Shown piece after piece: positions 39,401 to 60,091 of a DNA stretch of 64,000 nt. This DNA is from Amphiscolops sp. MND2022. Taxonomy: Eukaryota. The position numbers and the translations under genes are program-made. Every line of letters starts with the position of its first letter. The stretch's first letter is position 1. A model generated the notes under the pieces. That model made no database searches. It was not told where the DNA came from and worked only from the letters and a program-made list of their open reading frames with translations. The stretch covers positions 20,834,001-20,898,000 of the forward strand of contig OZ076409.1 in assembly GCA_964187785.1 (NCBI GenBank), read 5' to 3'.

Positions 39401-42400
39401 TGTGAAATATTTTGAGGGTTCTGTTTCAACTGACTTTATAACGAGGGTTCTCGTTCAAATTGTTTCGCGACTGTTCCAGGTTCGCGTAGCTTACAATTAT
39501 AAATACGAAGATGAGGCAGAAGCTACTTGTTACCGGGCAGAAAACGCTTACTGGCAATACGACGTACAAACTTACGTGTTTCCTTTCATCATGTCTAAAC
39601 GTCTGGCTTGCTATAACTACGACAGTGGCACCAGCGTTTCATTTGCCGTTTCTGGAATCTTCCTTACCAGAGACCAGTTTGACGGCAAAACTTTTTCATT
39701 TTTCAAAGATTGTTTCTCTAAAGAAATCACCTGTTACTTTCTTGACGAAGGCGGCTTTATCGTAAGAGCCAACTTGGAAACCAGACCACCGGTACCTGAA
39801 GAGCTCCAGAACAAATTCGCAATTGGAGCTAATCTATACAGCAAAGATCCTTGTCTTATGAGACAACTTGTTCACGATGGTATTTACAAACAAGTACAGG
39901 TTGTCAAACCCATGTGTTCATGTCAACCCAACGAGTTGTTCAACGAATCCAGTTGTGAAGTCCTGTCCAACATGGTTAAAACTTTTCTGGCTACTTTTTG
40001 GATGCTTCTGCAAAGTTTGGCACAAGTGGCTGTTCCTTCTTTCACTCATTTATGTTCACTGTTTTTTGCACCCTCGTTCGTGGAGCCCCTAGAAAAAGGG
40101 CCCTCTGAGACCCATATGTGTCAAAGGCAGCGTTTTTTTCAGTTTTTTTCGCTCATATTTTATATATGTGATAGCAGTAATTTGATTTCTCAGCCGCGTT
40201 TTTTTTACAAAGTTAGCTATACTCTGATTTTAGACTCGAGAAGTATCTTGCCTCATAGAATTAAACGAAAAGAAATATGTATCGTAACAGATTTTTAAAG
40301 GAGTTCTAAAAGATAATTAACGAAATTTTATTCATTTTTGCGCAAATGTGAATTGTTTTTCGAATCCTAAATCGTATGCTCGATCAATTCAGGACGGAAT
40401 GTATCGCAGTGATTACCAAGTTCATTATGCACAGAGTGACTAAAATGTAAGTGCCATTCGCTTAAAATTTTTTGGTTAATTGCTGTTACGACTACCTAAC
40501 GGAGCGTTATTTTGGGTAGTCGTTCTAGTTTTTATGGATGTTGATGTAGGTGCAATGAATATATTCTCAGGCTTTTCTGACTTCGGGTTTTCATATTTGA
40601 GTTGAGACAAGGAGTTTGAAAGAATTTGAATTTCCAAAAGAAAATCGTTTTATTAACGGTGTATAACAGTTCAACAATGATCACTATTAACTAACTGATT
40701 CAATTTTCAAAACCAACATATTTATACTTTCCTAGCATCATTTGTTCCTCACCTAAAAATTCCTAGGTATCAAAAAAATCGGGTTTGTTCACACAAAAAC
40801 CCAGTTGATTCATATTATTTCAGTCCCGCGTCACAAAATCAGGTATCAAAAATCCTAGTTGCGTCGCCCTTCCGTAACAATTGTTGAAATCATTTTTGTT
40901 CATACGATACACTTCCTGATTGACTGTCAAAATGGCGGGAAAATGAGAGCCTGCTTGATATTTTCATCGACGGAGGCACGCCGGCGTGATCAATATGTCA
41001 ATTTCCAAGTTGGAAATTCAAGTGCTCAAGACAAAAGTATGACAAGCAAAAATGACGACGTAACTAAGACGGAGTATATACTTTTGAGAGCGGAAACATT
41101 TGAATACTGATGAAAAGGAACAAATGATGCAGGAATAACCGTTTCCAGTTATTGCCAGTATTATAAGCACGAACATAAAACAACGTAAATATATCTAAGC
41201 TAAACATACAATCACATAAAAACTAAAACAACGGAGACCTTTCGGTCAACAAACTCCACACTTTGAAAAATGCTAATCAGAACAACATCGGTTAATAACA
41301 TAAACACGTTATTACTTCGATTGACAGTTTCGATTCAATAGTATGAATGCAGAACACTCAATGAAAACACTGGTATGAAGTTCATCTGAAAGGAAGATCC
41401 ATTCATATGACGTTGTCCTTACGTTGCATTCTGTTCACAAAAATTTTTCAATCATCAATTCTAGAGGAAATTTCATACTAAATTTTGTTCAGTTCCCTAA
41501 TTTTGTAACTACAATTGTAAACTTGCTCCGTACTGGCTCCGTACGTATTAAGATTTGGTATAGCTTTGCAAGCTTACAATTCACTCCGTAGTCGCTCCGT
41601 ACGTATTAAGATTAGGCATAGCTGTAATTTGCTCCGTAACTGCTCCGTACGTATTAAAATTAGGCATAGCTGAGCGGTGGTTTACGGAGGTATTACGGCA
41701 AGCTCAAAAATCATTCCAATTCTCGTACTAATGACGTCACAAAAATCATTCCAAATAACAACGCATTGCTAGCATAGCGTTCTTGATGACGTCACAAAAA
41801 TCATTCTAATTAGTTCATCAAAGCAAAATTAATTGTAATCGCATTCAAAGCGATAACAGCCGGGAGCGGTCTGTGACATTTGCAATGTATCTATCATTGA
41901 TATCAAGCTTCTTTGAATATGTAAATCGCAAAATAGTTCGGATACAACACCAAAATATACTTCGGATATAACGTCAAAAATTTTCATAGTGTTCAAAAAT
42001 TTATTGGTGGGTATACATTGCGAAAACCTAGTATCAGACAAAAAATGAGAATAATGAAGAGTCTCATAGTCCAAAAAAAGTAAAAGAGACCCTTTGCAAT
42101 TTTTTAACATCCATTCTTTTGCAAAATATCAAAAAAATGGAAAGGACCTGTTGGAGACGTAAAAAAATTTGAAAAAAGTCTCGCATTGTCGAAACATCGT
42201 AAGGTGGATCCTTTAGTCTTGTCCCGCTTTGTCGCGCTTGGCTTCGAGCAGAAACGTTCAATGATCTGCAGAATATGCGAAAATTTGTGTATAATCATGT
42301 CTTCATAAATAAACTACATCATAAACTTATCATGTCTCAGATAAGGAAATTCTGATGAACTAAACAGATAAATGGAAAAACTTTTGAGAAGAATAAAAAA

Positions 42401-45400
42401 TATATTTTTGGCAGAAACCCGAAGTCGTCATACTTCATGACGGAAACTTAGATGGTGAAAAAAACCAGACCACATTCTTGCCATACTTTCTGGGGGAGAA
42501 TATTTTCCGTATCTATTTTCATTTCTGAGAAATGTCAGCACTACAAATTGGAAATATTCAGATATTTTTAAATCTCTTTATTTGCGAACGAAAAAAATCG
42601 ACGCCAGTTAGCCCACAGAGCCAAATTAAGAATTGTACAAATTAAGAAACCATGGACTCCGCATTTGGTCGCGGTTCTGAGATATAGGGGATCGATAAAG
42701 GAAAACACTCAAAAATTGCGTTTTTAAAAAAACTTCTGTGCAAAAACATGACCATATGGGCATCTCGCAAAGCTCGAAGCCCCAAAACGGAAAAGAAGGA
42801 CCCTTTGCACTAGTTTAGATGCATTTCCGAAGTTTTCGTTTAGCTGAACAAACTGAACAAGAAATATAGAAATTTGTCGCATTCGCATCTGTCTTGAAGA
42901 AAAATTGAAAAATTAAAAAAGCTATATTTTGTTTTCAGCTATTGGCAGCATTCCCTATTACTCAAAAAAGTTTATGAAAGTCTTTATTGTCTGCCACGTA
43001 TAGTGTACTGAAGTTTCTTACGTGGTTTTCCGTTTGATCATTCCATTGATGCAACAAATTTGGAGGTATCAAATCATTCGCTTTTAACCAGTTGTAACAT
43101 TTATTTAAAGCATTTTTAAAACTTTTTTTCCTGCATCACAGTCCAATGGGTGGTTGCTGGTAAACGACTTTTTGGTTTTCGCCTCGTGTTAAAATCAAAA
43201 TTTATGTTGCAAGTACATCTAGAGTTCCTTGTTGAAGAAAAATATCTGTTTCGTGTGAAACAAATTCAAAACTTTCAAGTAACAGTTAACAAAAATTGAG
43301 AACTTTTTATTGAATCAATTTTTCAATTAATTGTTGATTGACGTGTTTGTTTCTCCGAAGAGAGCTAGCTATTCATCTTCTTTTTTTAAAAAAACGCTGT
43401 CAAAACATGGGTTACAGGAAAGTGATCAAGTTCCACTTCGGGGACAAGATATCTACCAAAGGGGTCCAGACTAACTGCTCTTCCACGTGTGCTTGTGTCA
43501 GCTTCAAGCAGGGACGTGTTCAGATCTAGATAGTTTTTAGATCAATCTAGATCAATCTAGAAATCAATCGTTTCAGGTCTAGATCTAATCTAATTCAGAT
43601 CTAGATCAATCCAATTCCCTGATTTGCTACAATCCTTATCGACACTTGTGACAATATATGTCAATTTAGTCCTAAACAGAGCAGCTATTTGGAATCGAGT
43701 TTGTTTTGTTTTTAGGTATTACCAGTGAACGGGGATCGAACCCTTCGTAGTTCCGTGTTTTTGCGTCAATCCACCTTATTGAATAAGGTGCTCTGCTTTT
43801 TCCCTTCCCCACATGTTTTGAAAAATAAATTTACCCTAGACAAGTTTATTAGATTTTTTTGTAATTCCTGTAACTAATATTCCATTTAATGCGATGACGT
43901 ACTTGTCAAACTTTGTAGAAATATTGAAAAATAATAGAAAATTTACAGCTGATTGAGTTAATTTATGTAACGTTACATAAATTAACTCAATCAGCTCTAA
44001 ATTTTCTATCATTTTTCAATATTTCTACAAAGTTTGACAAGTATGGGTGTCGCAGGCGGCCGCCTGCGATGGCAATTGGTATTCAGTGGCCTTCGGTTAC
44101 GACAGAGTGTTGCCAGGAACGACCCCCCTCAACTAAAGAAGATCAAGAGAGTGGACGCGACAATCGGGCTCAGAAATCAAAGTAAAACAAGATCGAAACT
44201 TTTACAAAAAAAACTATTTTGTGCTATTATTTTCAAACATGTAACTATATCTGTTTAGTGGTTGTGTTATATTAGTTACTTTTCAACATGTAAAATTGAT
44301 CAAATACATTAATAATTGGACACCAAGGCGTACAGGTAGAGGAAATGAGTTCAAATGTTTCCTCTCCTGTCGCTGAGGACGGCCAGTCCGATTATTAATT
44401 TGACCAATCACAGCGCAGTAGTTGATTAATTCATTCATTCTAGTATGGCGCAGTTTTGTATAATCGCCGTACTCGGCCTTTGTTTGTCTGTTTATTCAAG
44501 AGAGATTAAAGGACTGCTAGTCCAACTTGCCAAGCATCGCCTTTAATGCATCAATATATTGGTCCCTTCATGTCGAATTGGACAGTGAGGACGTAAATCT
44601 TTGGCGCTAACAAAGGTACAAGTATATTCATGAAGTGTTGCTATTTCATATTCCCTGGACTTACAGGGCTAATTACCATGCAATTTGTTAGTTGACATGA
44701 AAGGTTAAATATACATGTAAAATATGTAGCGTTGCGTTATTGTTATGTTGAGGAGGTTGCGTCCACATGAACAACTTAAGCCGCCAAGCTTTGATGTCTA
44801 TTTTTAGACCATGATGTTATAACGTGATGCTATTTATAACTTAGTGACTCTAAAAAAAGTCCCATGATGCTCTAAAGTTGAGCTGTCACCCTACCAAGGG
44901 TATATAAACAAGGTACTCGTGGTCCTGTGGACACAATTTTGAGAACCTTCACCGAAAGCAGTATTTTATCCTTTATACACTGTGAACAAGTACTATCAAC
45001 TTTTTGTTGGTAAAGTTTATTGGGATAATTCAAATATTTGCCCAATAGAAACATTTATGCCTTCCACAAGAAGACAGAAAGCTAAAGCTAGGATATCGAG
45101 AGAGTTAGACATGATGTCTGATATAGACAACCTAGACATAATGCTGGGGAATTCAGGAGAAATTTCTATAGAAAGAGAGCTAGCAGATGCAAATGAACAA
45201 TCCTCTGTTCAAGGTGACTACGACGCAAGTGAGTACCGAGGGAACAATTATAGTTTCACACAAGGAAATGAGCCAATTAGACAAAATGAAGTGAGACAAC
45301 CTTTTGAGACTTTTACGAATGAGTTCAATCTTAGATTGTCTCAAGAAATGGATTCCATGATGTCCATTGTCCACAATCAGATAAACAGAGCGATTAGCAC

Positions 45401-48400
45401 TGCTATATCAGAAAGAGTCATTTCAGAGATTCAAAACATTGTTAGCTCAATGTCGTCTTCGGGAAATAGGGACACTGAGGCTAGTATGTCCCCAAGTAGT
45501 CAGGAGAACAAGGAAAACTCATCCGGCTTAAAAACGAAAATAGTGAAAAAGGACTCACGGTCCGTCGGTGATTTGAAAGACACCGCGGGAAGTGGTCACT
45601 ACATGGTGACGGGAGCTAACGAAGCCCAACGGCAGATCCCTGAATTTCTGACTGGACGAATTCACTCAATCCCAAAACTGGAGAGACAACAATCTAACCC
45701 CAATTTCTCTCTGGGCACCACTCTGCCAGCCCCAGTACAAGAGGATCCTGAAACACCCCAGGATCCCCTGCATAGATTGGCCGATGTATTGGTCAACTTG
45801 CAAAATAAACCACAAACGATGACAATACGACCAGTCCAAACCACACCAATGACGTTTGATGGAAAGAGCGAGAAATTCGAACTTTTCGAGGACTTGTTCC
45901 ATACAATGATCAAAATGCAACCCATCATGACAGAGCAAATGAAAATTATTCATTTCCATTCCTTACTCAGGAAAGGGGCTCTGCAGACATTTAGGAACAT
46001 AAACTCGATAAACCGCCAAACGCTTGAGGACGTGCTGGTCATATTCCGGAGGAAATACGTAAAACCGCAATCACAAGCCACGGCAAAACACAAATGGCAT
46101 CGGCTCACTTTTGACCCAAATACCATGAAATTGCCAGACTTCTTACAAGAACTGAACCAGGGCGCAGAAAAAGCCTTTGGTGACAATGCAAAAAGCATGA
46201 TTGACAGCCTGTTGTACGCAAAATTACCAACGAAACTGAAACGATCTGTCAACATGGCCCGTTTAGAGAACGGGACCTACGAAGAGATAGTAGCTCATCT
46301 TGAAAGAAAGCTTGAGCTCAATGCACTAGAAGATTCAGACGACTTACCAATGGCCACCATGGCCTCAGCATCTACCAGTAATAACAATTTGCTGTCCAAT
46401 GGTATAAACACCAATAAGGACGCACAATGCTCTTATTGCAAAGACACAGGCCACTATTATAAGAGCTGCCCCAAACTGAAAAAGAAAAAATAGATGGAGG
46501 ACAAGAATGGCGAAAAACCACAACGTCCGACGTACCCGCCATGTGATACATGTGGGAAAAAGAATCACGCCACAGAACGGTTTTGGCAGGGCGCTGGAGC
46601 ACATCTACGACCCAAGAGGAACAAAGAAAACGATAAAACCAATGATGATTCCAATGAGGACAAAAACCCAAAAAGTCCAACAATAGTGAAACATCAACTT
46701 CAGGCCAATCATTTTCCAAAAAGCCTGAATCAAAAAACTGATTTCGCCACGACTCCAAATAAATGACTACATGTCAGTCCGACAATATGTCATTTCAGAT
46801 CCTCCAATAATAAAATTTCGACAGAATATTAACGACACCAATGGCATCCCGTCTGTTGTCTGGCAGAAACAGATGGAGAAAGCATACATCAAGACCTACA
46901 AAGTAGTACATAATGATCGACCAGACCGTTACTACGACAGAGACTACGCTAAAGACTTCGAGACTCAATTCCGACCCTTACAATTAATTGAAGATTACGA
47001 CCCTCAATATATTGACCCCGAGTACGGAAAAGATCCATACTGGGACGACGATTTATACGATAGACAATCGTTACAATTCTGCCATGATGATTACCCCCCA
47101 ACGGATGATGAGGAAGACCCTGAGATTCCTAATACAAAACTGTCCAGGGCCCTCATAGAACTGTGGCAGACGAAAACTGAAGCACTCCATCAAGAAAACG
47201 CGGAGGAATACCTAGACCAACAAACATATGAATTCGAACCGTCTCTTTTAGACGGAACAGCCTTCTCAAACGTTCTGGTCATAAAGGAAGGAGAACCGGC
47301 GTATAAAGCTCTCTCCACCAACTTGGGCCTTAAATTCAAGAGACGGATGCTGTATTTCCCAATGGATTTCGGAGAACTACCCCTGGACGGCCCGATAGAC
47401 ACTGGGGCCCACTCCAGTGCAATACCGGAAGCAGACTTCAGGAAAATTCGCCTACTGGCACCACAATCCATAGTAAAAGAGTGTCCTGCTCCTTCATTCC
47501 AAATAATGGTCGCAAACGGAGACTTAGAAACTCCGAAAAGCACCGTCGAATTAAAATTCGAAGTGGGAGACATTGAATTCCATGAAATTTTCATAGTGAT
47601 GGAAAAACTGTCTAGCCCCATCATTGGACTGATGTTTCTTCAAAGGAACCACACCGTGCTGGACATGCGCCAAGGTATCCTCAACTTCCCCTACTTTTCG
47701 ATGCAACTAAAAACGGCTGACCACAAATACTCAAATGTGATGGAACCCATCTTCAATCCCGAGGACGTCACAATTCCTCCAAACGATCTTGCGGTCATCT
47801 CGATACAGTCCCAAGTTTATGCTGAAAATGCGGTAACAGGAATATTGCAACCCAGTGATCTACTACATGAAGAAGGAGACGTCACTTTTTGCGCCGCAAT
47901 AGTCACACTACACGAAGGGACTATGAGAATGCATGTCAACAACTTTACAGACCAACCCTACAAAATCAAGAAAGGGTTGCATTTTGCAAACTTTTCGGTG
48001 ATGACTCCCGAGCAGATGAAACATGACAGACCAATAGACCCAGTGTCCACTTGGCATTTACTGAACGAAAATGAAGAAGATGCTGTTTACTACATCATTA
48101 GCCTTCTTAAAGCCAACAGAAATAACGACCAACATGAACAATATTGGTTCCCGACGCCTGAGAACCCAGGAGACGAAGCGTCACATACTCCCATACAGCA
48201 AAGAATTCTCAGGGAACTACGAAGCTTGGAGGAAATCGAAACACTTAACCCCCAGGACAATGAGGAATCTAGACGCAAATTCCTTAGCAATTTTGACTGG
48301 AAGGACTCAATGCTGCAACAACCTGAAATAAAGCAAATAGAAACTCTTTTGATGGAATTCCATGACATTTTCGCTCGCCATAGATTTGATATTGGCGAAA

Positions 48401-51400
48401 ATGAGGAGTTTACAGTCAAATTGACCCCCAAGGATGAATCACCCGCCTATAGCCAGAGCTTGCCTACTCCAATAAATCTTAAAGAAGACATATTGGTTGA
48501 ACTGGCATTACTTCATAAATATGGTATTATAACGACATTACCGTTCTCAAAGTATGCCAGTCCCATTTTGGCGCAGAAAAAACCCAATGGCAAATTGCGA
48601 CTATTAGTTGATCTGAGGATAATTAATAATCTTATTTCAGACGATTATATCAACAACAATCACCCAGTCAGTACTCTAACGGATGCAGCGCAACACATGG
48701 CCGAGAAAAAATTTTTGTGCAAACTTGACTGTTCGCAAGCCTATCACTGTCTTCCTATGGCAGACCAGCGGTCCATCGAAATGCTGGCCTTTAACTTTGC
48801 TAGCAGAACCTTTGCCTATCGAAGACTGGCACAAGGACTCAGTCGAGCCCTTTCGGCCTTCTCCAACTTCATGCGAGAATATTTGGACCGAGTCATTAAA
48901 GCTGATCAATGCGCTCAATATGTGGACGATATCGGCATTGCAGCCAAGGACGCCAATCATCTGATCGCAAATCTCAGGGCTACCTTTGAATGTATCAGAG
49001 AAGCGGGTTCGATATTATCCATGCACAAGTGCCACTTTGGCACTACCGAAATCGACTTTCTTGCGAAAACCATTACCCCTGAGGGAGTAAAACCCCAAAA
49101 GGAGCGAATCACTAACTTCTTAGAAAAAACTAAATTTCCCAAGTCCAAGAAAGCCTTACACTGTTATCTCGGTTTTCTCAACAACTACAGGAACTATATA
49201 CCAAGATTATCCGAGAAACTAGTCCCATTTTTTCAATTGCTCAAAAAGTACCAGAAGGTCCTGGTAACCACAGAATTAGTTGAGCAATTCAACGAAATTA
49301 ATAGAGACTTAGACAAATGCAGCCAATTGGCGCTGAAACAACCCCTGCCGAACAAACAACTAGTCCTTATGACTGACGCAAGCTTTACGGCAGCCGGTTA
49401 CGCCATATTGACTGAAGATGACCCTAATCAGAAATTCACATCTGTCAAAAAGTCCTATGCGCCCATTGCATATGGATCAAAAACTTTTACTCCTTCTCAG
49501 CTCAAAATGTCGATATATGCAAAGGAGTTTCTAGCCATATATTACGCATTTAAGGAGTTTGGACATATTTTCTGGGGAACACCACAACCAGTAATTATCC
49601 TCACAGATAATAAATCGGTCACGAGGTTCTTCCAGACCAAGATCATACCACCGCCACTCTGGAATGCTTGTGATTTTGTAATTCAATTCAACTTCATCAT
49701 AGCTCATATTCCAGGCAAAAACAACACAGCGGCGGACTACTTGTCCCGTATGGAAATGGACCCTACTGAAAAGCTAGTCCTGAAAATACCAGAGGATGTT
49801 GAAACTCGACCGATCGAAGTCAATGTCCAATCCGCCGGAGTCTCTGAAGAAGAACAGGTCTTCTTTACCGAAGAAGACAGCGAAACCGAAGAACAGATTT
49901 GGGAAAGAAAACAGCAATCCAGAAAGGGACTCATGGTCCCTGAGACAGTGATTCAAATTGATTCCATTTCAGAAAATACGGTAGAGGAAATCACCAATTT
50001 CACCCAAAAACTGAGAAGAACGAATCAGATACTGCTCGAGCAATCCAAGGACCCAATTTTGCTCCAATTGAAGGCAGAAATTCAGAAAGAAGAATACTCT
50101 GAAGAAATCCTTCAACAGGACATTCGGTACAAATATTATTTGATCAATATCGACCGAATAGTCCTCAAGGACGAAATAGTGACACGACAGTATTATGATG
50201 AAACGGGACAAATCAAACATCACCAGATATTATTACCAAAACATCTAGTTCGAGAATTATTACAAGCAATACATGGCACGGCACATCGACACCCAGGAAT
50301 TTCCAAAATGCTACAGGAGATTCGCCAAAAGTACTACTACCCTGGAATCGCTAAACATGTCAAAAAAATGGGTAGATGGCTGTGAAATATGTGCCAGGGA
50401 CAAACGGGTCCCTAATACGTTAATTACCCCGGAAATACTGAATTTGCCTGAATGGGACCTTGGGCCAGAAGATGCCATGCAAATTGAGCTGTTACCAAAT
50501 TTACCAACTAGTTGCGGATACCAGACAGTAATGACAGCAATAGATGTGTTTTCCAGATATCTATTTGCCTACCCGCTAATTGAGGCAACAGCCCCAAATG
50601 TGGCCAAGGTGACAATTGATATAAAGACAAAACACTCATATTTGCCGACAACCCTCATCACAGACAAGGGGTCCGCATTTACTTCAACAATTTTAGCGGA
50701 AATCACTGCAATTTTGGGCAACTACAAAGCATCCGCAAACTATTGGCAAACTTGAAAGGACACACGCCTCCTTGAAGACCAATCTGAAGATGGCCTCAGG
50801 GGAATATCGACGCCAATGGCACAAGTGTTTGCCATTAGCTGTGCTCAACTATAACACTACTTATCACTCTAGTATTGGATGTGAGCCAAGCAAAGTTTTC
50901 CATGGCCGAATTCCCTACAATGTCCTTGACCACAAACTAGGAAACAATCCTAATAAAAACATCCTACCAACAACTGACTTCGGGGAAGAGTCACAGCAGA
51001 GAACAAAAATCCTCATTGATCAAACGAAAAAGAATATCATGCAGTCGTATTTAAAGTACAAAGAGTATTCGACCGCAAGGCCAAGGCGACTCCACTACAG
51101 GAGAAAGACTACTGTTTTGTCCTTCAACCGAAAGCGGATAGTCAAGGCTCCAAAATACCATTTAGGGACTTCCGATGGATTGGTCTTTTTATTGTTCAAA
51201 AAGTCTTGCTAAACAACAATTACATAGTGCGTCGTCTAAATACGAACAAAACGCAGATCTTACATCGTATTAGACTCAAAAAATTTGTCCCAAATACCCC
51301 ATTGGAGGACAAATATACGCTAGAAAAATCACAACCGGACGACAAAATAATATTACTGCAAGACGATCTGTATACTATTGCATGGGAAGCCGACTTTGAG

Positions 51401-54400
51401 TACGAGCTGTTTGAACCGAGAAAAAATGATTGGTCCGACACGGACACGCGCCTATCAAACGATGCCGCGAGCGGCGAAGTGGACTATTACGTCAACGAAG
51501 ATGAACGCAGCAGCACGAACGACGATGAACGCAGCAGCGGAAAGAACGAAAATGACGTCACCGAAAATGAAATACGACCGAGATCGGCCAGCAGCCGTAA
51601 CGCGTCGTCCCTTCTGAATGAATCGCCTAGTTGGACGGAAAATGGAAATGACGTCACTAACGAAGTAAATGGCGATGTAAATGTTCCAAAAAGGGGCGCA
51701 GATATCACCGTGCCCGGAACATCGGAAAATGAAAAATCTGAGGAAAACTTGAGCCCTAGAGGAGGGAAATACAAACTTCGACCTAACCCCAACCCCAACT
51801 TTTCTGATGAATATAGATACTAGTCAGATATGTAAATTAAGGGTCCCACAAAGGCCTTTCGATTACCATATCTTTTTACTGGGACTATTCTGACTATATA
51901 TGAAAATATACATGAAAACTGGAACAAAAGACACAACAACATATAATACAATAGATGCCAAAGAATCACAACTATAAGTTTACACAAGGAGCAACTAAAA
52001 ACAAATGTACATTATGTACATTTAGTGCTTACTGGACCCCTGCTGTAATTCCTTAATAGTTTTGTCAATCTCCGAGGAAGGAAGATTGCCGAAATAGGCG
52101 AACTTGGTAGACTTCCCGGGTGAAGAAAAAGGAGTTCCTCCTGCCTCACTTGGCTCCGAAGACTGAGCGAAATGAACTGCCCTAGCCGTCCCAGCTCCCG
52201 AAATTTCAACTTTGAATGCAGCAAGGAGTTCTTTATGGATAGAGGACTGCCCAAAGGAATCTACATGGGACCAAGGGTCCCCAGAGACATTCCCAGACGA
52301 GAATTTGGCCTCAAGAAGATGATAGCGTGTTAGTGCAGCCTCAGTGACACAATCGTTTACTGACCCAGGAACGTAAGCGAGGTAAGCCTGAGCAGGAAAC
52401 AAAACATCTGACAAACGGCAAAGAACGTCGGAAGAATCCGCAGAATGAAATTTGATGGCAGGAAGAGAAGTGCTAATTTCCGTCAAACATACACAACTAA
52501 GACGGAAAAGATGGAATAAATGTGGACGTGTATAAAGTGCGGGCATGCCAGTTAGCAAAGTAACGACGTCTCGAATAAGATCAGGAGAACTGATAAGATC
52601 AGGATAAAGGTTTCGGAAGTCATCAACAAATCCAACGTACTCGTCTCGGCATTCGGGTGCGGAGCTTTCGTCGACCCATCCTCGCAACTGGAAAGTGCTG
52701 AATAGAGACGAGAAGCAGAATAGAACCTGGTCCATAGGCTGCGAAGAAAGGACTGTTGGGTCAAAGGATGCCATTCCCCTCACAATGTGAGCAGTTAAGC
52801 GAATGTCTCCTAAGAGAGACTCTATAATGTTGACGACGGAAGCACGGGCCTGACTGATAAATCCTTCTCTCGCATTCTCGGCAAGTTTATCGACGGCAGC
52901 CAATTGCTCTTTCTTTCCCCCAGTGTCCTTCTTAGCCTTCTTGTAGGAAAGAGAATCTATGTCCGACTTCAACTTCAGGCTCAGAAGAAAGTCCCTACTG
53001 GACAGCTGACGAACGCCTTCCAACTGTAACTGCATCAACCCAGACCAGTCGGTGTCCACTGGGGTGATTTTTGGCAATAAAGATCGCTGGCACAGCTCAC
53101 GAATGTAGCGGCAGATTTCTCGTCTAAATAAACAAAACTCGGTCAATTACAAACTGAGCACCCAATAAATAAGCCTTATGATTGGGACCTTCATGTTGTG
53201 ATGGAGCTGACAAATCTCGAAGAAAGACTCTAACCAACCCCTAATCCTAGAAGTATGTTAAGCAAAAGAATGGTCAGACTAACAATCGCGGACTAAACGT
53301 CCGAAGAGCTCGATCTTTAAGGGGAAGAACATGTCGTTGACGATCATCCAGTCCAGACTCTGCGGCTATAACAGAAGACAATCAACGAAGTGATGTAAGG
53401 AACAACTTGGACTGTGGCTACCTCCTGACCTACTATACGACAACTACGTAGTAACGAACCGAAAAGTACTAACTTTTCCTTTAACTCCTTGCATGACTTG
53501 TGTGGGAGCCTTCATAGTGAGGTAGTCCAGAACTTCTTGCCAAGGATGAGTCAATTCAGTGCATATGCCCGGGATGTTCCTTAGTTCGAAGCTGGATGCC
53601 TCGATCGCCTATTAAAAAGTTACTAGTGTCGACCTGCCGTAGAAGGAGGACAAAACACAGGTAAAGAACTTCCTTACCTTCGTTAGTTCTGGTGCCTCGA
53701 GAGTCCAGGGCTCAGTCAGGATGCCGCTCAAGAATACTATCAGGTATCGGAGCTGAGAAAAGAAGTCTATAGGACCGAAGACGCTTCCTCCTTCCTGGTA
53801 CATTAAGGTCTGTAAGGACATCACGTCAAACCTGAAGGGGTATTGGATCCCATGTGGGAACATTCCACAATTGTCTAGAGTGCGAACCAAAGCGGCCGGA
53901 CATCCAGACACGCTGACGAGGCCTTGTTTAGTGGAAATGGCAGATAGCAGTCGGGAGATCCCTGCAACATAGGTCTGTGGGAACCCAGCGGATAAAGGGC
54001 AGCGGAACAAAGGCATGCGGACAAGGGATTCCTCCTTCCAGAATCGTACACTCATCACCTGACTGCGGCCGATTACTTCAAATTCTAGCGCATACATGTC
54101 ATTAGAGACGATATGGCTAGACAAGTCTTCAATGCTTCAGGTGAAGATGTGTTGGAAAATGACCTAAAGTAAGAAAGACGAGAAGAGTTTACTTATGAAA
54201 CAAAAACATCTTGAAAGAGAAGGGGAATCAAAGTACGTACGGTCAAGGTAGCGGAACTCCAATCGAAAGGGGAAAATTGTTCCTTGTGGTTCATATATTT
54301 CCCCACTCTAGACCATAGTGATTGTAGCAAGAGGATGTTGCCGTCGTGAGGGATGAAACTGCCAATGAGATCTATCTGGGCACTTGCCCGTTGGTCCTCA

Positions 54401-57400
54401 GTGGTTTGCTGGCTTCCTGTATTGGCGATATAGTCATCATAGAAGGTGAACTTCTCTCCTACATTGACAAGAGGGGCATTTTCGAAATAAGGCTTCTCCC
54501 GTTCCAGCTCAAGAGGAGTCAGTACGTGGCCATCTCTCCCTCGGACCTGATGCTGTGTGATCCCAGTTATTTGGTCATTAACGCCAAGGTGTTGAAATCG
54601 CCAACGCTGGTCTTTCCTCAGGTGTGACTCACCCTGGTAATGCGTGATGATTTCTCTTGCCCCTTTTGAATAGATGGACACGTTCGTCTTACAGATTTGG
54701 CAGTAGAATTTGTGTTGATTATGTGCTGGGTCGAGGGGTCCGGTTACGAAAGTTTTCGTCCATTTGATGCCTTTAAAGTGAGCCTCTTTCATGACGTTTC
54801 CTGGCTTGGTGGCAACTCGTCGACGCTTTGCTGGGGGTTTTGAAGTTTGACGTTTACCTGCTGTCTTGGGTTTTAGCCGAGACAGTGGCGCTCAGTCCTC
54901 AATACTGTAACCGCTCCCAGGACTAGCAAGCATCATGGGTCCGGTGTCTTCTTGTGGGCTTGTTTTCTTACGGGGAGTAACCACTTGTGGGGACTGGTCG
55001 AATTCAATCTGTAGATCTAGGCTCCCAGGGTCTTCATCGGAGTTGAATGCCCCGCTTGTGTACCCATCGCTGGATAGGTCAGTTTCATTGCATTCCCCAC
55101 TGGAACTAGAACCAGAATCAGGATGTGGTGTTCCAGCCCGTCTCACATGTCGACAGCGTTCCTTGGTGATGACCTTACCATCGGCGGCCTGCAAGAGTAA
55201 AGATTTCATCAGGTGGAAAGATGAAAGAAGCGACTCGTCAGAAATGGTCCGTAGGATAGTGTGGATTTGGCCTTCGCTAAAGGCGACGACTGGATGGCCA
55301 ATGGGTAACTTGATTGGACGATTCTCTGTAAAACGTTTCCGAAGCGCCGCTCTCCCACTAATTGACAACTGTCGCGGTTGCGTCGGTGTGGACTTGGTGG
55401 GCTCAGGTGAGTCCATGATAGGATCCGCAGAGGCGTTTGGAGCCTGGACAATCTCTTCTTCCTCCTCTTGGGAAGAGGAAGGGACCGTGAAAAAGCCAGA
55501 GCTAACCCCACGTAGCACAGGACCACTAACTCCTGACCCGTCCAGTAAATCCTCGACTTCGCTCGCGTCAGTGGAATACAAATCTTGGACCGTAGGTCTT
55601 GGGGCAGCTTTACGATCATCTTGCTTCTCCTCTTTTTCGCCTGAGGAATCCAATATCTTGCCGTCAGTCTTGGTCTGGATTTCGGTACTCGGGGGACGTC
55701 TTGGCGTGACTTCAATTGTGCAAGACTCAGATTCCTTATGAACAGTGTCATTAGTTGTGGAGTTTTCGACCTGGGACGTAGGGACGAGTGTTGGGTCAGC
55801 GACAGTACTGTCTCGTTGGGCAATAGCTGCCACAGTTCGTTCAGCATATGCTGATAAACTTTCAGAATTGGAACCACTTGAGGCAATCGATGGAGGGCGA
55901 TCAACGGTTACATCCTCTTTTGGATTAGTATCCTTAGACGCTTCACTAGTAGCCTGCAACTCAGGGACTTCTTTACAAGGATTCTCAGGGACTGTATTCT
56001 CAGATGACGCCATGTCTAAATTGATACAACACTGATATTAGCAGTGAACTTCCTGTACGAACCAAAAACCGCATAAAAAGTCTTCCGGAAGCAGACAAAC
56101 TTGAACACTTGTGAACACTTGTGTTATTTGGACAGGAAGTACGTGAATGAAATGAGAGCCCTGATCAAGCCTCAGATTAATTCAAAGTTTTCAAGATTCA
56201 TAGAATACGGAAGTCTACTGACCTGAGTGATTGCAAAGACGAGCCCAAGTTGATTCCAGAACCTGTAGTGCAATAGACGATAGAGGGTAGTGAATTGCGG
56301 AATGTGACTGTTGGGAACGCCCTGGTGACGTGGACAGGATGTCAAAGATAAGCAGAATTCAGTATGTCCTTGGCGGTTAAGGGATCAGCAGACAAAGCGT
56401 CCAGAATATGGTGTAAAGTAAATTCAAATGCGTACGACTGAAGGACTAGATACAAATGGTAACTAATAACTAAACAATACTAGCGAGGAAGTACTTGATG
56501 GAAATTGAATGTAAAAGCAATAGAATGGTGAACCAACAATTTGACAAAATGTCGAGATTGGAGTTCGTAGCTATACAGTTTGGTGTCAAATTTACAATTA
56601 CCTACAAGTTACGCTATTATTTGATAAAGACTGCCAGCTATATCTACATTATTTTACATTATTCCCAAAACTTTGTTATTCTATGCAATTAATCCATTAT
56701 TTTATAATTATTTTCATTATTTCACCATTTTATTTCATTTCATATTATTTTCAAGGTCATATTATTTTATTCCTTATAAGGATTTACGGCCTTGAATCGC
56801 CATTTTACGAATGAAATCTAAATCACGAAATCTGATTGGCTATCATGGGGAGGACGAGACAGCGTGGCCTTCGGGCGTATCTTCACCTACTTAAAACCTT
56901 CAAGTGGGTCATGAGTGTTAATAAACACTCATCTTGATGCTTAAGAAATGAGAGTGGTGTTGAGGGCTACGGGTGTCAACATTGCCGCTGTCGGTAATTT
57001 CAAAGTGATCAGAGCAGCTAGTTGAAAGAATGTTACCCGGAAAATTTTGTTATTGAAAAATACCTCAGAAACGAAAAGGGAAACCCGGGAAAACACAAAC
57101 CGAGAAACAACGAGACACAGCGATCCGACAAGGAGAGGATCGCCTTTATTGCAATTTCAATTAATCAGATCAGTTGCTCTAGAAACTTTGTTTTAATTTG
57201 AAATCCTCACTTCTCCGAAATTGCCAAAAAACTGTTAAAAGACAGGTATATGTCTGATATCTCTGAGACAATTCCAATGGATTTCCAAGGCGCTGCTCAA
57301 TCAGAAGGGGCCCGGGCAATTATATGCATTTCTAGTGATGAGGAGAAAATGATGGACTCAGACTGTGGGTACTCGGTGGACGATTTGTACTTATCGTCGG

Positions 57401-60091
57401 AAGAAGAATCAACAGATGTAGAAATCATGGCTAGATGCATCGAGAGACAGCTAACTGAGCCAATTGCTATTCCCAACTCCGGGACATCAAGTACGCAAGT
57501 TAGGTGTGGGACACCTAAACCAAGCTTCCCACCTTTTCCTACATTCTCTCAGCAGTTTTTTAAGCTGGGTTGGGGAAATGGACCGGTAGGACGAGATACC
57601 CGAGTCAAGGCCACTCACCCTATCAACATTTGTAGGGACTTACGCCCTATGATTGATACGCCAATGTCGCCTCCCCCAGAGGACAGAGGGCCGTCCTGTA
57701 TGCAAGAGACGCCAACTTGCTCGTATTTAACGGACACTGCCTCAATCGAAACAGTTGCGAACCACTTTGACGGCATGGCTTTATCCGAGTGCGCTGGCCT
57801 TGCAGGCTGTTCAGATTTGCGTAATTTGCGGGAAATCGGTCCAACAAATTCAAGCGGAAACAGTCAATGATTACATTGATAAGACTGTCGTGCCGGGTGA
57901 AACCCTTGCGTGCGGAAACTGAGAGGAGGAAAAGGGCCTTTCTGGACGGGATGGCTGCTGGCACATTTTTACTCATGCCAGGGGGAGTGTCGCAGGCGGC
58001 CGCCTGCGATGGCAATTGGTATTCAGTGGCCTTCGGTTACGACAGAGTGTTGCCAGGAACGATCCCCCTCAACTAAAGAAGATCAAAAGAGTGGACGCGA
58101 CAATCGGGCTCAGAAATCAAAGTAAAAAAAAGATCGAAACTTTTACAACAAAACTATTTTGTGCTATTATTTTCAAACATGTAACTATATCTGTTTAGTG
58201 GTTGTGTTATATTAGTTACTTTTCAACATGTAAAATTGATCAAATACATTAATAATTGGACACCAAGGCGTACAGGTAGAGGAAACGAGTTCAAATGTTT
58301 CCTCTCCTGTCGCTGAGGACGGCCAGTCCGATTATTAAATTGACCAATCACAGCGCAGTAGTTGATTAATTCATTCATTTTAGTATGGCGCAGTTTTGTA
58401 TAATCGCCGTACTCGGCCTTTGTTTGTCTGTTTATTTAAGAGAGATTAAAGGACTGCTAGTCCAACTTGCCAAGCATCGCCTTTAATGCATCAATATATT
58501 GGTCCCTTCATGTCGAATTGGACAGTGAGGACGTAAATCTTTGGCGCTAACAAAGGTACAAGTATATTCATGAAGTGTTGCTATTTCATATTCCCTGTAC
58601 TTACAGGGCTGAATACCATGCAATTTGTTAGTTGACATGAAAGGTTAAATTTACATGTAAAACATGTAGCGTTGCATTATTGTTATGTTGAGGACGTAGC
58701 GTCCACATGAACAACTTAAGCCGACAAGCTTTGATGTCTATTTTTAGACCATGATGTTATAACGTGATGCTATTTATAACTTAGTGATTCTAAAATTAGT
58801 CCCATGATGCTCTAAATTTGAGCTGTCACCCTAGCAAGGATATATAAACAAGGTACTCGTGGTCCTGGGGACACAATTTTGAGAACCTTCACCGAAAGCA
58901 GTATTTTATCATTTATACACTGTGAACAAGTACTATCAACTATTTGTTGGTAAAGTTTATTGGGATAATTCAAATATTTGCCCAATAGAAACATTTATGC
59001 CTTCCACAAGAAGACAGAAAGCTAAAGCTAGGATATCGAGAGAGTTAGACATGATGTCTGATATAGACAACCTAGAGATAATTCTGGGGAATTCAGGAGT
59101 AAATCCTATAGAAAGAAAGCTAGCAGATGCAATTGAACAATCCCCTGTTCAAGGTGACTATGAGGCAAGTGAGTACCGAGGGAACAATTATAGTTTCACA
59201 CAAGAAAATGAGCCAATTAGACAAAATGAAGTGAGACAATCTTTTGAGACTTTTACGAATGAGTTCAATCTTAGATTGTCTCAAGAAATGGATTCCATGA
59301 TGTCCATGGTCCACAATCAGATAAACAGAGCGATTAGCACTGCTATATCAGAAAGAGTCATTCCAGAGATTCAAAACATTGTTAGCTCAATGTCGTCTTC
59401 GGGAAATAGGGACACTGAGGCTAGTATGTCCCCAAGTAGTCAGGAGAACAAGGAAAACTCATCCGGCTTAAAAACGAAAATATTGAAAAGGACTCACGGT
59501 CCGTCGGTGATTTGAGAGACACCGCGGGAAGTGGTCACTACAATGGGAACCGCAAAAACTTCAGATTGCTCTCGATTACGAGTAAGAGTTTTTAGGACAT
59601 AACTAGCCGGTGATCTCTGCGCCTCTTTTGTTGTTAAATTGCAACTAATTGCTCACATGCTTTGTCTCTGTATTAAATTCATGTACTTCTGAACACCCCT
59701 GCCCTATACCTGGAAACAGTACTACGCCAAGAAGATAATGAACTCCAATATGGTTGTCGTGTCTCTTCTGAAGGATGGCGGAGTGCAATGCGAAAACTGC
59801 AACGATCGCCACCCAGACCGACTCACCCTTGCAGACGAGTTTTACAAGTTTGAGGACAAAAAAGGCGGCTCCATTCAGAAAAATGGGAAACCAGTTAAGG
59901 AGTATAAAGTCAACACTTGCAACTACGTGGCTCGCGCCGAGAGGTCTCAGCAAAAAGACTGTTTTGATTCGTATGACTTGGAGAAACCTCTTTTCAGCCA
60001 TGATTGCAACTCTCATTCTTTATGCCAACCAAACGTTGGGTTAATCATCGCTCTACTTTTGTATCTTCTGCTGTGTCTTTCCAGAGTATAG
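6267..60091 (+). CDS. cacna2d: Voltage-gated calcium channel alpha2delta-like subunit, full gene span (16 exons, about 1202 aa)
   Basis: Exons join in phase and sum to 3609 nt. Family motifs appear in order: VNTQHSQVLIPSDV, YMYFATTSGAVRLYPA, YDVRF..SY..PKMVVIAIDSSGSV (MIDAS), ATNQNK, LTDGG, LPCSANGYFY, LLGVSSVDV, CYFLDEGGFIV, KKIMNSNMVVV, DCFD..HDCNS, then a hydrophobic tail. Confidence 0.88.
7890..9600 (+). pseudogene. Decayed viral/retroelement envelope (class I fusion-like) glycoprotein gene
   Basis: KRRTR (8216-8230) is followed directly by hydrophobic ALPLAAVAIGAI*LFGTG. A Cys-containing ectodomain remnant (GIWFVLS..YPGCRI..IRSDLELC in ORF 8842-9285) and a TM-like segment ILIMGLTSSLLSMLLHLLFMYMII (about 9478-9550) follow. 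Many stops and frameshifts; boundaries approximate. Confidence 0.65.
12269..12780 (-). mobile_element. HINE-like repeat copy (another diverged copy at about 11400-11975)
   Basis: AACAAG...TCGGCGCCATATCTAAGGCTCAAAA at the left end and CGCCGACTAAAA at the right end. Confidence 0.65.
13923..14073 (+). CDS. cacna2d: alpha2delta-like exon 2
   Basis: tag|GTG acceptor; helix VFTMDDDLTDLTSLKNAMQMRLQQSEKAASAIRFASE; inferred phase-1 GC donor AAAG|GCTGGT. Confidence 0.7.
14470..14609 (+). CDS. cacna2d: alpha2delta-like exon 3
   Basis: ttttgcag acceptor; ...TFTQDTSYRYYNKVNTQHSQ; CAG|GTCAGT donor. Not present in the ORF track. Confidence 0.85.
15427..15595 (+). CDS. cacna2d: alpha2delta-like exon 4 (VWA_N/Cache)
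   Basis: VLIPSDVHYC...ILWTRSLNDLY...YMYFATTSGAVRLYPAS; cag acceptor, G|GTTCGC donor. Confidence 0.9.
15633..16442 (+). mobile_element. HINE-like repeat copy
   Basis: TTTAGTCGGCGG start; GGCGCTGACTTTGGCCGTTCCCG..GGCTTGTT end. Confidence 0.65.
17018..17299 (+). CDS. cacna2d: alpha2delta-like exon 5 (start of VWA, MIDAS DxSxS)
   Basis: YDVRFQQSY..PKMVVIAIDSSGSVNG..ILETLSDSD; tttag acceptor, G|GTTAGT donor. Confidence 0.92.
17515..18221. mobile_element. Candidate solo LTR (707 bp)
   Basis: GC-richer block bounded by a perfect 7-bp inverted repeat TGTAACG...CGTTACA. Only a 3-bp flanking match (TTG), not a clean 4-6 bp TSD. Confidence 0.45.
18234..18380. repeat. 147-bp near-perfect palindrome made of two head-to-head HINE-like termini
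   Basis: TGGTAACAAGTCGGGACC...GTAGCC-G-GGCTAC...GGTCCCGACTTGTTACCA, centred at 18307. Confidence 0.9.
18520..19119 (+). mobile_element. HINE-like repeat copy
   Basis: CTAGTCGGCGC start; GGCGCCGACTTGAGACGTTCCCGTCTTG end. Confidence 0.6.
19157..19361 (+). CDS. cacna2d: alpha2delta-like exon 6 (VWA)
   Basis: ATNQNKQAFRN...ANFELMFDEA...CLKYLIVLTDGG; taag acceptor, AG|GTTAAT donor. Confidence 0.9.
19450..20040 (-). mobile_element. HINE-like repeat copy
   Basis: AACAAGGCGGGAACGACTCAAGTCGGCGTCATATCTAAGG end; the body matches the split copy at 24241-27212. Confidence 0.65.
20320..20885 (-). mobile_element. HINE-like repeat copy with a duplicated terminus
   Basis: AACAAGCCGGAAACGGTTCAAGTCGGCGCC end; CGCCGACTAAAA occurs twice (about 20824 and 20873). 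Confidence 0.65.
21280..21400 (+). CDS. cacna2d: alpha2delta-like exon 7 (end of VWA)
   Basis: PEVRLAYFLEG...LPCSANGYFYK; tttttag acceptor, AAG|GTTCGT donor. Not present in the ORF track. Confidence 0.88.
21916..22009. repeat. Hairpin inverted repeat (about 40-bp arms)
   Basis: GATTCCTACAAAAATCTCACAACCTATCGGAAAAAA ... TTTTTTCCGATAGGTTGTGAGATTTTTGTAGGAATC. Confidence 0.85.
22200..22446 (+). CDS. cacna2d: alpha2delta-like exon 8 (Cache)
   Basis: WSNLH...VMTVGMPVYN...LLGVSSVDV; ttag acceptor, G|GTAGGA donor. Confidence 0.9.
22824..23075 (+). CDS. cacna2d: alpha2delta-like exon 9
   Basis: GNLLLLNSKGSVVF...EILELE; G|GTTAG donor. An alternative in-phase acceptor exists at 22845. Confidence 0.75.
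23769..24038 (+). CDS. cacna2d: alpha2delta-like exon 10
   Basis: DMQYVASVTEVRYSWSRL...; gtag acceptor, A|GTGAGT donor; phases fit both neighbours. Confidence 0.8.
24241..27212 (+). mobile_element. HINE-like repeat copy split by a LINE insertion (halves 24241-24586 and 27047-27212)
   Basis: The two halves are contiguous in the uninterrupted copy at 19450-20040 (AAAAACGTTTAATGAGCCTAAA on the minus strand). Confidence 0.75.
24587..27046 (-). mobile_element. 5'-truncated CR1/L2-type LINE (RT domain, C-terminus, 3' UTR, (TAA)n tail)
   Basis: ORF 25922-27088 has NYRPISLL, QFGFR, FLDLKKAFETV, GVPQGSILGP, LFADDT; ORF 25277-25813 is the C-terminal region. Tail at about 24587-24603; near-exact TSD GTT(C/T)AAT at 24580-24586 and 27047-27053. 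Confidence 0.92.
27474..27659. mobile_element. Small TA-flanked Tc1/pogo-like MITE remnant
   Basis: TA|CCGTA...GAATAGAAGTCGC at the left and GCGGCCTCTATTC...GAAATACGG|TA at the right. Confidence 0.45.
27761..27974 (+). CDS. cacna2d: alpha2delta-like exon 11
   Basis: ttctag acceptor; FYPVIR..IYCPGL..VYEFL..GCKQ..LIYD; AG|GTAATT donor. Confidence 0.8.
29401..29953 (+). mobile_element. Best-preserved HINE-like copy with an internal tRNA-like cassette; followed directly by a second copy from about 29953
   Basis: 5' TTTAGTCGGCGC; 3' GGCGCCGACTTGG-GCCGTTCCCGGC-TTGTTT; A box 29558-29568, B box 29609-29619. Confidence 0.75.
30905..30980 (+). CDS. cacna2d: alpha2delta-like exon 12 (tentative)
   Basis: The only candidate I found that bridges a phase-2 donor (27974) to a phase-0 acceptor (38434): gcag|A LYDKNRSATAASCSKYSCRQTMQNQ|GTCTCA. 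No family motif supports it. Confidence 0.45.
31050..38240 (+). mobile_element. Heavily degenerate Ty3/gypsy LTR retrotransposon; LTR pair not recognisable, boundaries approximate
   Basis: Coiled-coil Gag-like ORF 31371-31895; CFNCGQRDHFAREC knuckle at about 32548; protease-like GLIVTGS..FLLGRNFL (33270-33540); RT (SPWA, LRFC, DAYPLPRID, MPFGMCNS, YIDD; 34239-34969); RNase H (TDAS, VDNQAL, RNAD; 35150-35520). Most of the integrase is missing. Confidence 0.88.
38434..38610 (+). CDS. cacna2d: alpha2delta-like exon 13
   Basis: tttag|AELNEQASFIKFSSGLLVVREP...HTQ|GTTAGT; resembles the Cache 'F.gT..Gl.R' strand; phase 0/0. Confidence 0.65.
38864..39011. repeat. Imperfect long inverted repeat
   Basis: CCTGTTTCAAAGTCTCCAGCAGAATCAAAATTCAATTCTATTCGT ... 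ACGAATAGAATTGAGTTTTGATTCTGCTTGAGACTTTCAGACAGG. Confidence 0.8.
39480..40126 (+). CDS. cacna2d: alpha2delta-like exon 14 (distal Cache, alpha2/delta linker)
   Basis: ccag acceptor; AVSGIFL, CFSKEITCYFLDEGGFIV, GANLYSKDPCLMRQLVHDGIYK, CSC; inferred GC donor CAAAG|GCAGCG. Confidence 0.85.
41517..41810. repeat. Minisatellites: about 3x (GCTCCGTACGTATTAAGATTAGGCATAGCT core) and 2-3x (TGACGTCACAAAAATCATTC)
   Basis: Direct repeats visible at about 41535, 41594, 41642 and at 41706, 41732, 41787. Confidence 0.75.
43418..43496 (+). CDS. cacna2d: alpha2delta-like exon 15 (delta)
   Basis: tacag|G KVIKFHFGDKISTKGVQTNCSSTCAC|GTCAGC; phases fit exons 14 and 16. Confidence 0.75.
43521..43610. repeat. Low-complexity (AGATCT/TCTAGA/GATCAATCTA) microrepeat
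   Basis: Repeated ATCTAGATC and AATCTAG words. Confidence 0.6.
43900..44043. repeat. 144-bp loopless palindrome abutting the gypsy insertion
   Basis: Centre TGTAAC|GTTACA at 43971/43972; 72-bp arms with 2 mismatches by eye. Confidence 0.92.
44048..45603 (+). repeat. 5' LTR (1556 bp)
   Basis: Direct repeat of 57988-59542 with about 45 differences by hand count (about 97% identity); CCAAT at about 44404 and TATATAAA at 44901. Confidence 0.95.
45057..46741 (+). pseudogene. Gag (starts inside the LTR; capsid-like region and two zinc knuckles)
   Basis: ATG at 45057 (MPSTRRQKAK); TFDGKSEKFELFEDLF; CSYCKDTGHYYKSC and CDTCGKKNHATERF. In-frame TAG at 46491 and an inferred 1-nt loss near 46670; the inferred original end is SKN* at 46741. 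Confidence 0.88.
45604..45618 (+). other. Primer-binding site (priming tRNA not identified)
   Basis: TGG-initial sequence TGGTGACGGGAGCTA immediately after the LTR-terminal CA. Confidence 0.75.
46738..51823 (+). pseudogene. Pol: aspartic protease, dUTPase-like spacer, RT, RNase H, integrase (integrase frameshifted)
   Basis: IDTGA at about 47395; YASP..KLRLLVDLR; QYVDD at about 48916; MTDAS, AKEFLA, LTDNK, TAADYLSR; H..H..C..C, IDVFSRY, ITDKG, LERTH across ORFs 46771-50385, 50273-50755, 50772-51212 and 51206-51823. Confidence 0.93.
52022..56013 (-). pseudogene. Spliced antisense cargo gene of the gypsy element: acidic/Ser-rich N-terminus, NLS, BED-like zinc finger, hAT-transposase-like body
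   Basis: ORFs 54892-56013 and 54193-54792 are one frame split by a single TGA; PAKRRRV; FYCQIC..H....H. GT-AG introns 54240-54164, 53677-53609 and 53473-53366 join all pieces in phase with ORF 52022-53146, with several remaining in-frame stops. Confidence 0.75.
56014..57249. promoter_or_regulatory. Putative internal bidirectional promoter region of the element
   Basis: Non-coding gap between divergent ATGs (56013 minus, 57250 plus); AT-rich tract at about 56690-56780 and CTGATTGGCT (inverse CCAAT) at about 56832. Confidence 0.4.
57250..58076 (+). pseudogene. Sense accessory ORF overlapping the PPT and 3' LTR; unknown function
   Basis: ORF 57250-57870 (IICISSDEE, acidic) continues through two inferred frameshifts into VQICVICGKSVQQIQAE... 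and ETERRKRAFLDGM...GTIPLN* (stop at 58076, inside the LTR). Confidence 0.6.
57980..57987 (+). other. Polypurine tract
   Basis: AGGGGGAG directly before the TG of the 3' LTR. Confidence 0.8.
57988..59542 (+). repeat. 3' LTR (1555 bp), containing a duplicate of the Gag N-terminus (ATG 58997)
   Basis: Matches 44048-45603; ends CACTACA followed by the TSD ATGGG. Confidence 0.95.
59720..60091 (+). CDS. cacna2d: alpha2delta-like exon 16 (delta C-terminus, GPI-signal/TM-like tail)
   Basis: aacag|YYAKKIMNSNMVVV..CENC..TCNY..DCFD..HDCNS..LIIALLLYLLLCLSRV*. Confidence 0.85.
   Translation, partial: YYAKKIMNSNMVVVSLLKDGGVQCENCNDRHPDRLTLADEFYKFEDKKGGSIQKNGKPVKEYKVNTCNYVARAERSQQKDCFDSYDLEKPLFSHDCNSHSLCQPNVGLIIALLLYLLLCLSRV

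Follow-up and report, generated by a model that had tools for sequence, protein, structure and literature searches.

A conserved intron-bearing antisense gene in a clade of Ty3/gypsy retrotransposons and its possible origin from a hAT-type transposase

A full copy of a Ty3/gypsy retrotransposon lies within the 64-kb stretch of Amphiscolops sp. MND2022 DNA analysed here (contig OZ076409.1, positions 20,834,001 to 20,898,000; hereafter the window, whose own positions serve as coordinates throughout), and it carries, on the minus strand between pol and the 3' long terminal repeat (LTR), a gene of five exons and four introns. By searching the 1.07-Gb source genome for further copies, we found that this antisense gene is almost certainly a real gene under selection, that it belongs to a whole clade of such elements, and that a giant CACTA transposon has likely captured it. 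On the basis of predicted structure, we propose, at a probability of about 0.5, that its product is a catalytically dead derivative of a hAT-type transposase that likely works in the nucleus, where it would bind DNA or chromatin and so help to keep the element expressed.

The host element (44048-59542) shows TG...CA ends, a primer binding site, a polypurine tract and a short target-site duplication (TSD), and encodes gag followed by protease, reverse transcriptase (RT), RNase H and integrase in the order typical of Ty3/gypsy; its LTRs are 97% identical to each other. A segment of ~6 kb separates pol from the 3' LTR and contains the antisense gene and a short sense open reading frame (ORF), orfX. 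The exons measure 1773, 486, 135, 82 and 1160 nt, about 1,211 codons in total, the length of exon 5 being taken from undeleted close copies. An initial annotation, made from the sequence letters alone, had recognized three in-phase GT-AG introns of 77, 69 and 108 nt, the nuclear localization signal PAKRRRV and a CxxC..H..H finger, and we recovered all of these, with each of the three introns in phase 0. The stop codons that it had left unexplained between 53365 and 53147 are accounted for by a fourth intron that it had missed. The window copy itself is a pseudogene, with premature stops at codon 374 (54894-54892, exon 1) and codon 600 (54139-54137, exon 2) and a 58-nt deletion at 53121 in exon 5 relative to the other 17 aligned copies.

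The gene structure is well preserved among relatives. GT..AG dinucleotides stand at the projected sites in 61 of 72 junction pairs from 18 mostly decayed old copies, and in 99 of 104 pairs from 26 of another 27 loci, where mean exon identity is 44-79%; exons 2-3 were missing from the remaining locus. By this comparison, retention at the projected junctions exceeds chance. Between families, intron 4 is 48-54% identical as against 59-73% for the start of exon 5. Two database relatives, P0081 and P0087, have no intron 1, and their frame runs directly from exon 1 into exon 2, which independently supports the intron 1 junction. At loci L103 and L104 the exon 1 frame is also continuous into exon 2, with intron 1 either lost or in frame. 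The protein keeps its finger ligands almost without exception (cysteines 51/51 and 55/55, histidines 50/51 and 50/51 in alignment A6), a basic motif at the PAKRRRV position occurs in 12 of the 16 loci checked, and Ser-Pro motifs are conserved as well. In 12 of 16 loci a TGTA(C/T)A occurs no more than 25 nt from the stop codon; the TGTACA pair that follows the stop is conserved in most gypsy families, is missing from the CACTA copy, and is likely a 3'-end processing signal or a protein-binding site.

The dN/dS comparison that the initial annotation had proposed as a check gave 0.06-0.16 in the six exon-2 and exon-5 pairs that could be measured, next to 0.05-0.07 in six pol pairs, and so indicates purifying selection; dS was saturated in 36 of the 42 between-family pairs (dN 0.15-0.43). 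Sense-strand frames across exon 5 were closed in 21 of 21 cases. Elements whose LTRs are 99.5-100% identical have matched gene blocks free of stops, which means that recently active copies carry the gene intact. These results also bear on the idea that the protein or its antisense RNA restrains the element and limits its copy number. Dead transposases can act as dominant repressors. Antisense transcripts can moreover pair with genomic RNA as double-stranded RNA (PMC7264820). However, selection at the codon level implies that the protein matters and not the RNA alone, and the great abundance of carriers (7,402 first-look candidates in the exon-5 genome search, 129 of them scored) is a better fit to a helper, making self-restraint improbable.

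Position, strand and exon layout of the gene are constant across families whose RTs are 70-100% identical, which supports the initial annotation's picture of an antisense gene belonging to the retrotransposon. Both flanks were read at 27 loci: gag-pol adjoins the gene on the opposite strand at 20, one has only the LTR side, and six lie in another element. The most distant carriers have an RT 70% identical to that of the window and an accessory protein only ~20% identical. Deep groups are common to the tree built from exon 5 (22 rows) and that from RT (18 rows, three partial RTs excluded), indicating that the gene is old in the clade. As judged from these alignments, the antisense gene is fixed clade-wide between pol and the 3' LTR, is under purifying selection and has been co-inherited with pol at depth. 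Relatives extend beyond the source genome, with 93 for exon 1, 67 for exon 2, and matches of exon 5 to 592 clusters at 50% identity (150 listed). It is extremely improbable that the gene is a passive hAT insertion hitch-hiking in one element, even though the window copy is itself broken: the constant layout across families and the purifying selection effectively refute a nested insertion. A search for hAT terminal inverted repeats (TIRs) and an 8-bp TSD, another check named in the initial annotation, gave no convincing inverted pair in 51800-57990, the best one flanking the gene being 18 nt at 78%, although decay could have erased ends of great age.

Among closely related elements the modules recombine. 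RTs that are 98-100% identical are found with exon 5 sequences only 55-75% identical, and LTR and accessory gene are uncoupled in 4 of 19 close pairs. Young families (L035-L046, L121-L134) exchange pol, accessory gene and LTR as separate modules. Single elements also contain internal duplications of part of the accessory gene or of the junction between pol and the gene (L041, L047/L048, L126, L129/L130, L145), and matches recurring every ~14 kb (G000:C9:14566518-14623137, C5:3368820-3397932, C12:14845904-14876023) suggest head-to-tail arrays of whole elements.

The second carrier is of a different kind. Six near-identical loci, including G000:C2:29298732-29334034 (L152, L149, L115, L116), carry the gene without gag-pol. 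Both ends could be located in four of them, 35.3, 35.3, 37.6 and 51.4 kb apart, the longest holding a nested gag-pol. The ends are 37-bp TIRs beginning CCCC, TSDs of 2-3 bp flank 12 of 12 end pairs in a set that includes short non-autonomous copies, and a Tnp2-type transposase is encoded (DUF1258, E 3.9e-9; Transposase_21 and DUF4218 weak), all of which identify a giant CACTA/EnSpm element. It also has two weak SET-like ORFs (L152:7728-8618 and L149:1093-1632, both minus). Its copy of the gene retains all four introns and open frames, clusters with two gypsy families at 100/100, and is followed by ~330 nt of gypsy pol tail that is 83% identical to one of those two families. This grouping and the pol tail point to capture from gypsy by CACTA as the likely direction, and a closer, unsampled donor is possible. 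The CACTA element has hairpins and tandem repeats, many non-autonomous copies of 0.7-1.7 kb, and an end motif that occurs 463 times in the genome; it also has short ORFs that resemble BEN proteins when judged by eye and have no Pfam match.

That both an RNA element and a DNA element use the gene favours a role in chromatin or transcription over one in particles or RNA export. It is unlikely that the protein is a Rev- or CERV-like factor that acts on the unspliced 15-kb genomic RNA, binding it for export or protection. Conserved Ser-Pro and basic motifs would suit such a factor, and RNA binding is possible for CCHH fingers. The nematode gypsy element Cer1 requires a spliced, phosphorylated nuclear accessory protein for export of its genomic RNA (PMC10309623). 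Nevertheless, a DNA transposon, which has no step through genomic RNA, retains the gene in open form, introns included, and the predicted fold points to a DNA transposase. We consider an integration co-factor, in which the dead transposase would anchor the integration complex on chosen chromatin or aid nuclear entry, quite unlikely as well. Transposase folds do bind DNA ends and target DNA, and this role is proposed for plant antisense ORFs (PMC7264820), but accessory genes are freely exchanged between elements with near-identical pol, which is unexpected for a tight integrase partner, and the gene is also retained by the CACTA element.

With respect to the protein itself, an origin from a DDE transposase is probable and one from hAT specifically somewhat favoured. 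The core predicted for exon 2 is an RNase H-like fold preceded by helices, as in hAT proteins, where such a core follows a helical DNA-binding and dimerisation domain, and Hermes is its best structural match. The initial annotation had read the protein as a BED-type hAT transposase without its catalytic Asp; the fold and the apparent loss of acids agree with it, whereas the finger has no zf-BED match in Pfam, and BED clusters appear among Atlas leads below 0.9. When predicted strands and an alignment by eye to hAT ORFs are used to map the sites, the DDE triad positions hold Glu, Cys and then no conserved acid, and F..D stands where the CxxH motif would follow the second Asp; the catalytic acidic residues thus look lost. 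Several results weigh against our proposal. Sequence-level support for hAT membership was sought and none was found. The PF05699 dimerisation domain has no match in the window ORF or in the 84 of 150 listed exon-5 relatives that were scanned, and the helix PHLFHLFRLSCVCL, in which the initial annotation had seen hAT dimerisation, has neither a PF05699 nor a fold match. Moreover, the cognate LTR is partly uncoupled from the accessory protein and not locked to it, which speaks against the proposal in its simple form, and any binding site would have to be within the internal cassette or at those LTR ends that are conserved. Because the triad, PF05699 and TIR tests failed, we do not file the protein as a hAT transposase. 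Its RNase H-like core could have another source, such as a Mutator- or P-type transposase or a host nuclease-fold protein, and act as a nuclease or as a decoy against small-RNA defence. Argonaute, actin-like, integrase and ISCth4 structures score near Hermes, strand-1 Glu residues are conserved in close families, and exon 5, modelled as all-helical (pLDDT 83, the predicted local distance difference test), matched no solved fold, with no hAT entry among the matches listed. DEDDy nuclease ORFs are described in bdelloid LTR elements (PMC5408684). We nonetheless rate such a source as decidedly unlikely.

If the transposase-derived helper is real, an ancestral gypsy element would have acquired a transposase gene in head-to-head orientation to pol. 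In this antisense orientation neither the introns nor the 3'-end signal of the gene can be recognized on the genomic RNA, and both therefore persist through reverse transcription, so that the entire intron-bearing gene could be carried along in that RNA. Cutting activity would have been lost, with DNA binding and oligomerisation retained. An internal promoter in the spacer that precedes orfX would drive transcription of the gene, the transcript would be spliced, the protein would enter the nucleus by its basic motif, and the finger and helical domain may bind element DNA and either oppose host silencing or activate transcription in trans. We put this pro-expression role on DNA or chromatin at slightly less than an even chance. 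A broader scheme, in which a dead hAT transposase became a portable counter-silencing factor that transposons of different classes hand on to one another, is tentative and somewhat doubtful. The factor would first have been fixed as the antisense gene of an ancient gypsy clade, its cassette would have been reshuffled relative to pol and LTR, and a giant CACTA element would then have captured it and combined it with SET-like proteins of its own. That an unrelated DNA transposon has kept the gene suggests pro-transposon activity of a general kind, and the natural swaps among pol, LTR and accessory gene permit tests of specificity. If the proposal holds, the protein would be a candidate for sequence-specific anti-silencing in a genome that looks animal-like.

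The features of the host element are collected in Table 1. Both LTRs include ~180 gag codons (44943-45603 and 58883-59542), as the gag start lies within the LTR, also in most related families. Conservation of orfX among related elements goes down to 23-30% identity, and pol residues 314-422 (~47670-47995), between protease and RT, have a weak dUTPase-like Pfam match (E 0.03). Elsewhere in the window, a near-perfect palindrome of 144 bp (43900-44043) ends 4 bp before the left end of the element, with similar ones at 2594-2893, 18229-18385 and 38864-39011. There are also a decayed second LTR-type element with protease and RT remnants (~31000-38000), two RT ORFs of the long interspersed nuclear element type (1384-2421, 25922-27199), and a plus-strand ORF (39321-40298) that matches voltage-gated calcium channel alpha2, is probably a host exon and fits an animal-like genome.

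Table 1. Positions of the features of the host element and its antisense gene in the window
Feature	Position	Strand	Remarks
TSD ATGGG (5 bp)	44043-44047 (left); 59543-59547 (right)	+	flanks host element
5' LTR, 1,556 bp, TG...CA	44048-45603	+	includes first ~180 gag codons
gag frame	44943-46493	+	retrotransposon gag region, zinc knuckle; Pfam matches weak
Primer binding site (TGG...)	from 45604	+	directly after 5' LTR
pol: protease, RT, RNase H, integrase	46729-51823	+	integrase broken across several frames in window copy
Near-palindromic TGTACA-containing motif	52002-52023	-	overlaps and continues past stop codon
Exon 5, all-helical domain	52022-53123	-	model pLDDT 83; stop codon 52024-52022
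Intron 4, 160 nt, phase 1, GTTAGT..TTAG	53124-53283	-	absent from initial annotation; found by aligning 18 copies
Exon 4, 82 nt	53284-53365	-	
Intron 3, 108 nt, phase 0, GTTAGT..ATAG	53366-53473	-	
Exon 3, 45 codons	53474-53608	-	
Intron 2, 69 nt, phase 0, GTAAGG..ATAG	53609-53677	-	
Exon 2, 162 codons	53678-54163	-	predicted RNase H-like core, beta1-beta2-beta3-alpha-beta4-alpha
Intron 1, 77 nt, phase 0, GTACGT..TTAG	54164-54240	-	
Exon 1, 591 codons	54241-56013	-	low-complexity N-terminus, NLS-like motif, CCHH finger, linker helices
Zinc-finger motif C-x2-C-x16-H-x5-H	54622-54702	-	
Nuclear localization signal (NLS)-like PAKRRRV	54814-54834	-	
Conserved helical block, N-terminal part of exon 1	55383-55174	-	
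AT-rich spacer, antisense gene start to orfX	56038-57201	unstranded	putative internal divergent promoter region
orfX	57202-57870	+	acidic, Ser/Pro-rich; no Pfam match; in most related elements
3' LTR	57988-59542	+	polypurine tract just upstream

ZBED, CGGBP1, GTF2IRD2 and DAYSLEEPER are hAT proteins domesticated by hosts, whereas here the domestication would be by a retrotransposon, extending the phenomenon from host genomes to other mobile elements. Compared with Hermes and other hAT transposases, the predicted order is alike (finger, helical domain, RNase H-like core, long helical region), but sequence homology is not detectable, the triad and CxxH are apparently lost, and there are no TIRs. 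Antisense ORFs in this position are known from plant and fungal gypsy elements, their origin and role being described as unknown (PMC7264820, PMC11963269), and for most of them no similarity to transposable elements is reported (PMC7264820). The gene described here belongs to this class of antisense accessory ORFs (aORF-3R), and it shares with maize Grande gene23, rice RIRE2 and the Retand TRP28 ORFs its place, its orientation and its presence in most copies; the Grande product is nuclear and has its own promoter (PMC7264820, PMC11963269). It differs from them by its four conserved introns, its length of ~1,200 codons, its CCHH finger and the transposase core predicted for it, and Pfam found no TRP28 domain of the Retand type in the window ORF or the scanned relatives. 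Unlike those ORFs, it has a traceable likely source, a DNA transposase. Rotifer LTR elements have captured extra ORFs (PMC5408684), and HBZ of human T-cell leukaemia virus type 1 is an antisense nuclear retroviral protein (PMC11963269). CERV of Cer1 is a spliced nuclear accessory protein of a gypsy element, properties that are predicted for our protein; neither CERV nor HBZ is described as transposase-derived in these sources (PMC10309623, PMC11963269), and we suggest no similarity to them. The listings of our literature searches showed no intron-bearing, transposase-derived antisense gene in an LTR element, nor the transfer of one to a CACTA element. The closest functional parallels may be the sequence-specific activators VANC of VANDAL and TnpA of Spm, which are likewise accessory, fast-evolving and element-borne; TnpA is reported to be transposase-derived (10.64898/2026.08.24.746577), as are other activators in plants (10.64898/2026.08.24.746577, PMC13547354). 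Those are plant DNA-transposon proteins with demonstrated activity, whereas the present gene sits in an LTR element, its coupling to the cognate LTR is weak and its activity is putative. Under the broader scheme of a portable counter-silencing factor, it would be an animal counterpart of VANC and TnpA, derived from the enzyme of another transposon.

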